This document shows, one piece after another, positions 14,946-25,068 of a DNA stretch of 64,000 nt (the first letter of the stretch is position 1; each line of letters starts with the position of its first letter). The stretch comes from a virus. The notes beneath the pieces were generated by a model, which saw nothing but the letters and a program-made list of their open reading frames with translations, ran no database searches and was not told where the DNA came from. The stretch spans positions 1 through 64,000 of IMG/VR virus record IMGVR_UViG_3300017917_002795. One strand, given 5' to 3'. Position numbers and translations under genes: made by a program.

Positions 14946-15129
14946 GAAGGGATCCGTGCCAGTGCAGGACCTTCACTCAATAGATGGGATCACGACCACA
15001 GGATGCTGCCGGCACTCCGAACACTGTGGTCCCATCAGGATATTTTCACAGAGCCTAGTTTCTCTCTCTTATTTCTAGGCCACCAAGCACCCGGGTTTCT
15101 CTCTCTTATTTCCCGGGTGCTTTTCTTTT
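14946..15129 (+). ncRNA. Structured RNA with twin hairpins carrying identical loops (candidate antisense regulator)
   Basis: Four hairpins; the last two share loop TTTCTCTCTCTTATTT; final stem is followed by a T-rich tail. Confidence 0.65.
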
Positions 15130-15232
15130 ATACACGAAAAATTGTGAATAACTTTTTTTAAACTTTTTCGCGAAAAGATTAGGATCGCATTATTTTTTTG
15201 CTTATCTTTAAGTATATAAAAAAATAAGAGAT

Positions 15233-17399: not shown

Positions 17400-17477
17400 A
17401 GTCAGGTAGTGTAATTGGTAACACCCTAGCCCTCCTCTAAAGGGTAGAAGATGCAGGTTCGAATCCTGTCCTGACTA
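17400..17477 (+). tRNA. Atypical tRNA / tRNA-like RNA copy 3 (extended anticodon arm; TCT or CTA)
   Basis: AGTCAGG/CCTGACT, D-arm GTGT/ACAC, arm CTAGCCCT-CCTCTAA-AGGGTAG, T-arm GCAGG-TTCGAAT-CCTGT. Confidence 0.6.
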
Positions 17478-17491
17478 CAAAAACAAAATAT

Positions 17492-17583: not shown

Positions 17584-17683
17584 AGTCAGGTGGCGGAATT
17601 GGTAGACGCAATAAGTTGTTAAATCTTAACCTTAGAATACAATAGGTATTACTTATTCACAGGTTCGAATCCTGTCCTGACTA
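17584..17683 (+). ncRNA. tRNA-like RNA copy 4
   Basis: Same acceptor, D-arm and T-arm; anticodon arm replaced by AATAAGT/ACTTATT enclosing GTTAA/TTAAC and AATAC/GTATT. Confidence 0.75.
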
Positions 17684-17784: not shown

Positions 17785-18525
17785 ATGGCAAAAAGAATCA
17801 ATGTAAGCAATGGCGTAATCATCACAGATACAGCAAGTATCCGTCAGTATGTGAAAGAAACCAAGAAACCGGCAACATTCAGTCTAGCTGAAGAAAAGAC
17901 GTTGTTAACCGCAGCACAATCCGGTGACCTCCAAGCACGAGACACAATCATCCGAGCCAACCTTCGCTTTGTGATTCAAGTAGCACGAAGCTTCCAGGGA
18001 ATGGGATTGGAATTGGAGGATCTCATTGCATTTGGTAATGTAGGTTTGTTTGAGGCTGTGGATCGTTATGATGCTGCAAAGGATTTCAAATTCATTACGT
18101 TTGCTGTGTGGTATGTGCGCGCTGAGATTCAAAAGGCACTCAATGACCTATCCCGCGTAGTTAGGATCCCTTCCCATAAGACTACCACAGAAACCCAAAG
18201 CATTAAAAGCATACACGCTCCGGTAGGTGAAGACGAAAACAAAGAGACATATGCAGATCGTTTCCTAGAAGCCGAGTCCGGTAAATCACAGCGCGACATC
18301 AATGACCTTCGCTTTGACTTGCACCGAGCATTGAATCAGCTGCCAGAGAAGCAAAGAGAAGCTGTGACACGCTTTTATGGTATTGATAGGGAATATGCTC
18401 AGTGCATGGAACAAATTGCTGAGGAGCTTAATATAACGGGAGAGCGTGCAAGACAATTAGTTAGAATGGCTGAGATGTCTTTGAGAGCTATGCCGGGTAT
18501 TAAATTGCTTGAGCAATATTTGTGA
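17785..18525 (+). CDS. Phage RNA polymerase sigma-70 family factor (RpoD/SigA-like)
   Basis: ANLRFVIQVA, DLIAFGNVGLFEAVDRYD, KFITFAVWYVR; region 4 IAEELNITGERARQ. Confidence 0.93.
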   Translation: MAKRINVSNGVIITDTASIRQYVKETKKPATFSLAEEKTLLTAAQSGDLQARDTIIRANLRFVIQVARSFQGMGLELEDLIAFGNVGLFEAVDRYDAAKDFKFITFAVWYVRAEIQKALNDLSRVVRIPSHKTTTETQSIKSIHAPVGEDENKETYADRFLEAESGKSQRDINDLRFDLHRALNQLPEKQREAVTRFYGIDREYAQCMEQIAEELNITGERARQLVRMAEMSLRAMPGIKLLEQYL

Positions 18526-18564
18526 AAAATTTGGAGTTGTGCATATTTATTTATATAATATAAT

Positions 18565-18931
18565 AGAATGCCTGAGAACCATTCTGCCATAATATGATAA
18601 ATAAAGTTGGCGCCGGGTGGAGTTCTCAGCAGCACAGGTGCCGACACGATATAAAGGGTGTCAGCAATGGCGCCCTTTCTTTATGTTACTGCGGTCCTGA
18701 GAACATCGCTGAATCTTTCAAAACAGATAATCGCCCTGAGACAACAGCGAGATATTGAGATGTGTCGATTCATTAGGGTAGTGCCGATGAGTCTTGCAAC
18801 ACATTGCATCATGTCGAGTTTATTTGCAGTCTTTCAAGTTTGGGCATGATCCTCATTAATCTGAGTCTACAGTTAAAATAAAGTACTGGTTAAGATATTT
18901 CCTTTCAGGTCAGCTCGATAAATCTTCGCTG
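18565..18931 (+). ncRNA. Large structured ncRNA candidate B
   Basis: Late motif at 18543; many G-U-rich stems, a GCAA tetraloop, repeated loop CCTGAGAAC complementary to loop GTTCTCAG. Confidence 0.7.
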
Positions 18932-19016
18932 AAAAAAGTTTAAACATTTCTGGAAAAAGATTAGGATCGCATTATTATTTTGCTTATCTTTATATTATAA
19001 ATAAAAAATAAGAGAT

Positions 19017-19259
19017 ATGAAAAATTTAACGATTAACGATTGGGACCTAGTAGAAAATGCGAAAACCTTCTTTAAAGGAGACGCTGACTTAGCACAAGAT
19101 TGGCTAGAAATGTTTTCAGATTTCGGAGACGTTCCGTTGTCGGAATTAGTTGAGCCAGCTGCCGAGTTTGCAATTGAGAACGAATTACCGTTCCGGGTAT
19201 TAGACGCGATAGATCAAAATGAGGACGGCGAAGTAACTTGGATTATAGAAATGCAGTAA
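19017..19259 (+). CDS. Highly acidic pre-early protein
   Basis: Cassette promoter; D/E-rich. Confidence 0.8.
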   Translation: MKNLTINDWDLVENAKTFFKGDADLAQDWLEMFSDFGDVPLSELVEPAAEFAIENELPFRVLDAIDQNEDGEVTWIIEMQ

Positions 19260-24878: not shown

Positions 24879-24923
24879 AAATGCCTGCTACCTTAGGCAA
24901 TACGTTGTGAGGTAAACGTACGG

Positions 24924-24952
24924 AGTGCTAGTAGAAATATTAGCACTTTTTT
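24924..24952 (+). terminator. Intrinsic terminator
   Basis: AGTGCTAGTA-GAAA-TATTAGCACT plus T run. Confidence 0.8.
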
Positions 24953-25068
24953 ACTGTTTAGATATTTATTAATATGAAAAGTATATTTGCATTCTTAGTA
25001 GGTTGTGTAGCAATAATCGTGCTAGGACATTATGCATTTTACGAAATGTTATTTATCAAGGTCAATCA

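Follow-up and report, generated by a model that had tools for sequence, protein, structure and literature searches.

A patchily distributed cassette of an uncultured aquatic phage, predicted to encode a folded RNA with matched loops in two alleles

In the first 64 kb of the 140.6-kb IMG/VR virus record IMGVR_UViG_3300017917_002795 (record about 83% complete; this 64-kb stretch is the window in the following), we identified a segment of about 400 nucleotides (nt) at positions 18530–18931, behind the gene for a phage sigma-70-like factor, which, judged by sequence comparison, is a non-coding cassette encoding a predicted folded RNA on the plus strand. This RNA would display two identical loops, D1 and D2, on either side of a third loop, A, that is complementary to both, and among the cassette copies from the window and seven other contigs the three loops covary and form two matched alleles. 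The reading that we favour, with a probability of roughly 40%, is a self-targeting antisense module for control that resembles the seqA-CI-seqC region of phage P4 in layout, has two orthogonal specificities, and gates a 3' RNA domain.

Loop alleles and predicted hairpins of the 5' half

The 5' half of the cassette (18565–18712) is predicted to fold on the plus strand into four hairpins, namely H1, H2, T, and H3 (Table 1), with complementary cores at 18572–18579 in D1, 18622–18629 in A, and 18697–18704 in D2. The D loop sequence CCTGAGAAC occurred twice in the window, where 0.19 occurrences were expected, and also twice in the 140.6-kb genome, so that its repetition exceeds chance. In the window as well as in contigs L026, L115, L109, and L117, both D loops read CCUGAGAAC and the A loop GUUCUCAG (type I); in L025, L107, and L113, the D loops read CCUGGAAAC and the A loop GUUUCCAG (type II). 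Both D1.A and A.D2 were complementary over 8 nt in all six distinct sequences (100%), with two double changes in each pairing, and calculated duplex energies amounted to about -11 kcal/mol for cognate and about -4 kcal/mol for cross-allele combinations. The sole loop substitution within type I copies (C to A in L026, L115, and L117) was located at a loop base outside the 8-bp match.

Comparison of L107 and L113, which originate from different samples, with the window revealed that the stretch from 18679 to 18712, i.e., the tail of T and hairpin H3, was identical apart from the specificity bases 18700–18701, and D2 thus follows A and not its own flanks. The allele type did not follow the sigma tree either, since copies of different type occur as sister pairs, namely the window (type I) with L107 (type II), at 98% nucleotide identity, and L109 (type I) with L025 (type II). 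Reshuffling of orthogonal alleles among near-identical genomes is expected of a specificity determinant that acts in trans. A previous sequence-only reading of this DNA had described several donor loops for one acceptor; this held for D1 and D2, which switch jointly with A between the two alleles, but not for the third, partial CCUGAGA, which is present at 18735 as claimed and stays invariant while the acceptor changes, placing it outside the covarying set. Elsewhere in the genome, GTTCTCAG was found only once (130112), which is within chance for an 8-mer in 140 kb, and a search for external loop targets in non-carrier loci showed no enrichment.

For an assessment of the fold, the 5' half of seven copies, six of them distinct, was aligned to a covariance model, and pairs were counted for the four hairpins together with either D1.A or A.D2. 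Among the six distinct sequences, 98.8% of the 246 pair cells held standard pairs and five pairs were changed on both sides. The observed pairing and covariation scores were reached in none of 500 shuffles, and pairing fell to 38–57% when the partners were slid by one to three columns. An earlier alignment of three sequences, made before the covariance model, agreed on the pairing. Changes on both sides comprised AU to UG and UA to GC in the H1 stem and UA to CG in the H3 stem of L025; in type II, the H2 stem was kept, with a GU to AU change and one matching base deleted from each of its strands. In the T stem, A to G changes yielded G.U pairs, and the T loop read GCAA, GCGA, or GUAA among the copies, all of them of the GNRA type. 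Overall, 42 of 118 columns from H1 to T (18563–18678) were variable, and the 5' domain differed by about 32% between the alleles with every helix kept.

Based on the G.U pairs and the GNRA loop variants, the structure was assigned to the plus strand. On the opposite strand, those U.G pairs of T and H2 that are invariant would be C.A mismatches, which agrees with the earlier suggestion that the G-U pairs reflect structure at the RNA level, and the hairpins, loops, and complement named at that time were all found again in place. The plus strand of the region also folded better than shuffles (z = -1.95), compared to z = -0.31 for the minus strand.

These data bear directly on the explanation that there is no RNA device at all and that the repeats serve as protein-binding or recombination sites at the DNA level, or belong to a non-autonomous mobile element or a recently spread gene remnant, the conservation being a sign of youth. 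The concerted change of the three 8-mer copies could also result from a change in a DNA-binding protein, and a recent sweep could account for the high identity within the 3' domain. However, compensated stem pairs in H1 and H3, the matched deletion preserving H2, G.U pairs valid on one strand only, and GNRA loop variants are signatures of RNA, and the divergence of the 5' domain with all helices retained also argues against this explanation.

T has the form of an intrinsic terminator, at which transcription would end, with 11 pairs (five of them G-C), a loop of 4 nt, and CTTTATGTTA as its tail (UUUUUUCUUU in L025). Of the terminator-like sites in 20 kb, it belongs to the three with the longest stems (11 pairs). 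The single RNA of about 370 nt assumed in the sequence-only reading was thereby retained as a structured element, but not as one assured transcript, with T (18653–18688) lying in its middle; as T separates the acceptor from the second donor, a short species of about 120 nt and a read-through product may both exist. A long-range extension of the A.D2 helix (16 nt, 81%) was also considered and rejected; it is lost in L025 while H3 is kept, and the local hairpins are therefore preferred.

Table 1. Features of the cassette and its immediate surroundings (positions in the window).
Feature	Position	Strand	Remarks
Predicted hairpin H1	18565–18585	+	AGAATG/CATTCT; 9-nt loop D1 (18571–18579, CCUGAGAAC; DNA CCTGAGAAC) with YUNR-type CUGA start
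Predicted hairpin H2	18606–18645	+	GTTGGCGCC/GGTGCCGAC; 9-bp stem, 3-bp apical stem, apical loop with acceptor A
Acceptor A	18622–18629	+	GUUCUCAG (DNA GTTCTCAG), in the apical loop of H2
Predicted hairpin T	18653–18678, tail to 18688	+	AAAGGGTGTCA-GCAA-TGGCGCCCTTT; 11-bp stem, GNRA tetraloop, U-rich tail
Predicted hairpin H3	18691–18709	+	GCGGT/ATCGC; 9-nt loop D2 (18696–18704, CCUGAGAAC)
Third, partial CCUGAGA	18735–18741	+	Unchanged in type II copies (acceptor GUUUCCAG)
Near-invariant 3' domain	18746–18931	+	Ends can pair: CAGCGAGATATTGAG (18746–18760) with CTCGATAAATCTTCGCTG (18914–18931)
29-codon open reading frame	18761–18850	+	Within the 3' domain; of doubtful significance
Invariant upstream stretch, read as own promoter	18526–18564	+	ATATTTATTTATA (18543–18555) overlapping TATAAT (18555–18560)
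Accessory cassette, whole	18530–18931	+	About 400 nt; GAAAAA at left edge, AAAAAAGTTT at right edge, within an A-run
Phage sigma-70-like factor gene	17785–18525	+	246 aa; Pfam Sigma70_r2 (6e-14), Sigma70_r4 (6e-8)
Early promoter/leader module	18932–19016	+	85 nt, outside the cassette; at least 9 more copies in the genome; precedes the small genes of the region

Genomic location, putative promoter, and distribution

The cassette lies in a gap of 491 nt between the sigma gene and an 80-codon open reading frame (ORF; 19017–19259), and a check for ORFs revealed no frame open across the region. All known copies are located directly 3' of the stop codon of the sigma gene. The upstream stretch was invariant in 37 of 37 columns in the six full copies, divergence between the alleles starting at about 18563. 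Genome-wide, the late-type motif ATATTTATA was found 35 times on the plus strand and four times on the minus strand, typically 10–30 nt 5' of an ATG; the copy at 18543 agrees with it at 8 of 9 positions, and the identical 13-mer ATATTTATTTATA is also located 5' of a gene at 113518. Based on the strand bias of the motif, its spacing to start codons, and the 13-mer before the gene at 113518, it is reasonable to regard 18526–18564 as the cassette's own, putatively late-class promoter with a presumed start near 18562. The late motif of the sequence-only reading was thus upheld as a reasonable assignment, and the presumed transcription start coincides with the point at which the two alleles begin to diverge. 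Sites of ATATTTATA, including those at genome positions 24477, 28346, 42939, 75991, and 101530, probably serve as promoters for the later class of phage genes, and the sigma factor of the phage may recognise them. A recurrent terminator-promoter junction, consisting of hairpins with the shared tail TTTT(T)ACTGTT immediately before ATATTTATA, was observed at 24922–24959 of the window and at about 75950, 101490, and 102820 of the genome.

Among 80 metagenome loci reached via the sigma protein, two (L025 and L026) carried the segment. Exact look-ups of closer sigma variants led to the carriers L107, L109, L113, L115, and L117 and to the non-carriers L108, L110, L111, L112, L116, and L118. In all seven other contigs with a filled site, the cassette occupied the same locus; it was absent from L001–L007, L022, L027–L029, L108, L110–L112, L116, and L118, and no fewer than 11 close relatives whose DNA could be read are without it. 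Empty sites (L001–L007, L022, L108, L110, L116, and L118) read TAAAAAAAAGTTT. In seven relatives from IMG/VR (sigma 53–79% identical), the promoter module follows directly after the sigma stop codon, and the alignment of the closer ENA contig L022 to the window skips from 18529 to 18932. Two more contigs were without the cassette by gene spacing, one of them encoding a sigma protein identical to that of the carrier L107, and carriers and non-carriers were interleaved in the sigma nucleotide tree.

The simplest account of this pattern is that the cassette was gained and lost through homologous recombination within the sigma gene and the promoter module on its flanks. This account fits the shuffling of cassettes around the locus, e.g., the placement of the 80-codon gene in L024. 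Small genes behind repeated promoter modules were found to be shuffled among the relatives; in L024 (1–400), the 80-codon gene follows a different gene, and in L107, L113, and L115 a 123-codon gene is interposed downstream of the cassette.

No terminal inverted repeats were found at the cassette, which is single-copy in the 140.6-kb genome and present once per genome. Together with the locus, which is the same in all seven carriers, this speaks against a miniature inverted-repeat transposable element or another non-autonomous transposon. Patchy presence, the A-run around the cassette, and flanks that recombine readily would suit an element acting at the DNA level; nevertheless, with neither inverted repeats, a second genome copy, nor another locus, and with neither an open frame nor a protein homologue, we regard the explanation without an RNA device as very improbable.

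Searches beyond these loci revealed no further relatives. A blastn comparison with 50,697 phage records gave no match to the element, and exact-pattern scans of IMG/VR, in which the window's own record possibly lies outside the scanned set, gave none for the three-motif architecture, the T hairpin, two 19–22-mers of the 3' domain, or the promoter 24-mer. The three-motif pattern had no match in metagenome contigs, and the covariance model of the 5' domain, applied to 90 loci and to the rest of the genome, detected no additional or diverged copy. One 20-mer of the 3' domain matched a Gemmatimonadetes metagenome-assembled genome; only those 20 bases agreed, and the match was dismissed as chance. 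Rfam, searched at gathering thresholds over the window and at E<=10 over the region (18400–19100), yielded only tRNA matches and noise, and the structured non-coding RNA of the earlier description, here assigned to the plus strand, thus matches no known Rfam family. On the basis of these comparisons, the cassette RNA is a new family, with no Rfam match and no homologue identified outside a narrow clade of uncultured aquatic phages.

Some further observations concern the surroundings of the cassette. The 3' end of the sigma gene at 18462–18475 (TAGAATGGCTGAGA) nearly repeats the 5' half and loop of H1 at 18564–18577 (TAGAATGCCTGAGA); this 14-nt near-repeat may be a trace of the cassette's origin or chance, and its GCTGAGA does not covary with the loops. 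In L109 (443–1000), a second sigma-like gene (185 aa, Sigma70_r2 and r4_2) was detected immediately 5' of the 246-aa sigma gene. Two over-long tRNA-like elements, described as lying just 5' of the sigma gene, gave Rfam tRNA matches of 37 and 47 bits (513–621, 109 nt, and 17584–17683, 100 nt, respectively) without an ARAGORN call; the only tRNAs called by ARAGORN in the window were tRNA-Ser (1245–1332) and tRNA-Arg (17400–17478). At 15053–15130, the adjacent hairpins GCCTAG/CTAGGC and CACCCGGG/CCCGGGTG share a 16-nt loop TTTCTCTCTCTTATTT and are followed by a CTTTTCTTTT tail. The loop is the reverse complement of the AAATAAGAGAGAGAAA-like leader ahead of the small genes of the region, and the element resembles a second loop-displayed antisense RNA, possibly shutting off early cassettes.

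The near-invariant 3' domain

In the 3' domain, 10 of 187 columns were variable among six copies, most of them in one small patch just after 18855. Third codon positions of the sigma gene were 61–67% identical between carriers, neutral sites being near saturation while the 3' domain is almost frozen. Its complementary ends formed the closing helix in the minimum free energy fold of the isolated domain, as the sequence-only reading had proposed, this result referring to unconstrained folding of the isolated domain only. Taken alone, the domain was not unusually stable (z = -0.55). The few substitutions in its predicted helices were all wobble-compatible on the plus strand, and the domain is otherwise too invariant for testing any fold. 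The hexamer CAGCGA at 18746–18751 has two possible partners, as TCGCTGAA occurs at both 18706 and 18926.

This domain could also be taken for part of a small-gene or 3'-untranslated-region module, in which T ends the sigma mRNA, the 3' domain is the folded mRNA for a 29-residue peptide with its start region sequestered by the closing helix, and the 5' hairpin RNA is an antisense regulator resembling that of a type I toxin-antitoxin system. In this regard, the sigma gene is followed directly by T as a strong terminator-like site, the closing helix covers the bases just 5' of the ATG, and the GAGATAT preceding the ORF is similar to the shared leader AAGAGATATG. All six full copies have kept the 29-codon ORF intact, with only three substitutions, one of them synonymous and two conservative. 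However, conservation is even over all codon positions and extends 80 nt past the stop codon, which is not a coding pattern, the peptide is without a clear transmembrane segment, D2 is 57 nt away from the ATG and does not cover the start, and no separate promoter was seen for the 3' domain. A longer ORF of 63 aa, overlapping in the same frame, had no homologue among 5.8 billion proteins; with this result and no open frame across the region, the idea of a decayed gene was dropped as well. Altogether, we consider a small-gene module unlikely.

Possible mechanisms and known RNA systems

As a self-targeting antisense module, the cassette would present, in this order, a promoter, the target loop D1, the complementary loop A on the stable hairpin H2, T, the second target D2, and a cargo. 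The H2 hairpin, either within a short terminated transcript or after processing, would pair via loop A with D1 and D2; its targets would be transcripts of the same element, derived from the same genome or from a co-infecting one. Pairing would then set how much transcription or function continues beyond T and H3 into the almost invariant 3' domain, and two orthogonal specificity alleles would circulate among near-identical phages. The structure, the covariation of the three loops, the two alleles, the accessory distribution, and the conservation pattern follow from the sequence comparisons, while the class of the promoter, termination at T, an action in trans, and the output under regulation are inferred. 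This module is favoured on account of the two reshuffled orthogonal alleles, which a purely internal contact would not produce.

The closest known layouts are, by analogy, those of P4 seqA-CI(seqB)-seqC and of c4 in P1 and P7 rather than those of phi29 pRNA, ROOL, or GOLLD. As in C4-type systems, the antisense sequence A is flanked on the same strand by two complementary targets, D1 upstream and D2 downstream. The P4 CI RNA is processed from an untranslated leader and pairs with the upstream seqA and the downstream seqC, resulting in premature termination (PMC4825925; PMC3632133). The P4 region combines one promoter, one strand, and a stable hairpin RNA with an exposed sequence complementary to two identical flanking targets, with a terminator or terminators inside the leader, and the cassette would do likewise. 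Unlike P4, the host of the cassette is a large and apparently non-temperate aquatic phage, the cassette is accessory and without similarity to the P4 region in sequence or covariance model, and the place of the downstream replication operon is taken by a near-invariant non-coding domain as cargo. Between P4 and its heteroimmune relatives, seqA, seqB, and seqC show matched differences.

In the immI operon of P1 and P7, the antisense RNA and its targets are likewise encoded in tandem, and the c4 antisense RNA of P1 acts on icd/ant within its own operon. Citron and Schuster reportedly described in 1990 compensatory changes in antisense RNA and target between P1 and P7, resulting in two specificities. 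In contrast to c4, which masks a ribosome-binding site, D2 overlaps no start codon, and no repressor or antirepressor genes are located near the cassette. Rfam C4 (RF01695) had no match at E<=10 in 18400–19100, a direct search for C4 in the whole 140.6-kb record was also without a match, and isrK (RF01394), the seqA RNA of P4, was not among the matches at E<=10. Loop-loop recognition with alleles that differ only in loop bases is also known from ColE1 RNA I/II, R1 CopA/CopT, and hok/sok-type systems, with which the cassette appears to share a YUNR-type start of the target loop (CUGA or CUGG in D1 and D2). Those are true cis-antisense RNAs from the opposite strand with a replication or toxin function, while the partners of the cassette all lie on one strand and no such function was identified for it.

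The pairings may instead serve a switch within a single RNA of about 370 nt, in which A pairs with either D1 or D2, and CAGCGA with the TCGCTG next to H3 or that at the 3' end, opening or closing the 3' domain in cis only. Both D1.A and A.D2 are conserved, CAGCGA has the duplicated partner mentioned above, and the predicted folds are near iso-energetic, with -104.3 kcal/mol for A.D2, -102.6 kcal/mol for D1.A, and -96.9 kcal/mol for the local hairpins before kissing energy. From the first two of these energies, the conformational switch suggested in the sequence-only reading is physically plausible. It leaves the allele pattern unexplained, however, as an internal contact gives no reason for two maintained and reshuffled orthogonal alleles; in addition, T with its U-tail would end many transcripts before D2, and the CAGCGA/TCGCTG pairings are invariant and thus offer no covariation test. 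We regard such a switch as possible but rather doubtful.

The same reading had also proposed kissing-loop oligomerisation, in which the D loops would contact the A loop of another molecule and form dimers or chains, comparable to the rings of phi29 pRNA or the cages of ROOL and GOLLD. These are phage-associated structured RNAs as well, in which complementary loops mediate RNA-RNA contacts; the cassette RNA carries conserved complementary loops on one molecule, and allele-specific pairing energies would hold assemblies homotypic. Nevertheless, a donor:acceptor ratio of 2:1 would not allow closed rings by these contacts alone, and the 3' domain by itself shows no unusual stability. phi29 pRNA is a core and universally present packaging component, and the absence of the dispensable cassette from most close relatives argues against a core structural role of this kind. 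Furthermore, Rfam revealed no match to phi29 pRNA, ROOL, or GOLLD at gathering thresholds or E<=10, and ROOL and GOLLD measure roughly 600–800 nt, so that the cassette RNA with its approximately 370 nt has about half their length. Self-assembly therefore appears highly unlikely.

Several points weigh against the antisense module itself. All covariation stems from two allele classes, and the number of independent covariation events is consequently small. The intramolecular switch accounts for the same pairings. Since Rfam C4 and isrK do not match, any likeness to these systems is one of analogy. A search for the Phage_integrase domain, the one lysogeny marker looked for, gave no match in the 140.6-kb record, which is about 83% complete, and a lysogeny-type immunity role is thus left without support. 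As D2 lies downstream of T, the A.D2 pairing cannot decide co-transcriptional termination at T, and the 3' domain, which would be the regulated cargo, has neither a convincing gene nor a terminator of its own.

Mechanism aside, the cassette represents a clean, covariation-backed new family of phage RNA from metagenomic data. It flags an RNA domain of about 190 nt without known relatives, the nucleotide sequence of which is frozen, and it offers a natural, compact pair of orthogonal 8-bp loop-loop interactions. The 5' half appears to apply a known principle in a new setting. A more far-reaching idea, which we consider rather improbable, is that the cassette serves lytic aquatic phages as a self/non-self module made of RNA alone, in which a late hairpin RNA would recognise matching loops on the transcripts of co-infecting relatives and thereby control an ultra-conserved effector RNA formed by the 3' domain, the two alleles being kept by frequency-dependent selection. 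If true, such a module would represent antisense incompatibility or immunity outside lysogeny and plasmid replication. Should the favoured reading as an antisense control module be right, the target-antisense-target logic, so far known from the enterobacterial elements P4 and P1, would extend well beyond that setting, to large uncultured freshwater phages and a cassette that is gained and lost and comes in two interchangeable specificities.

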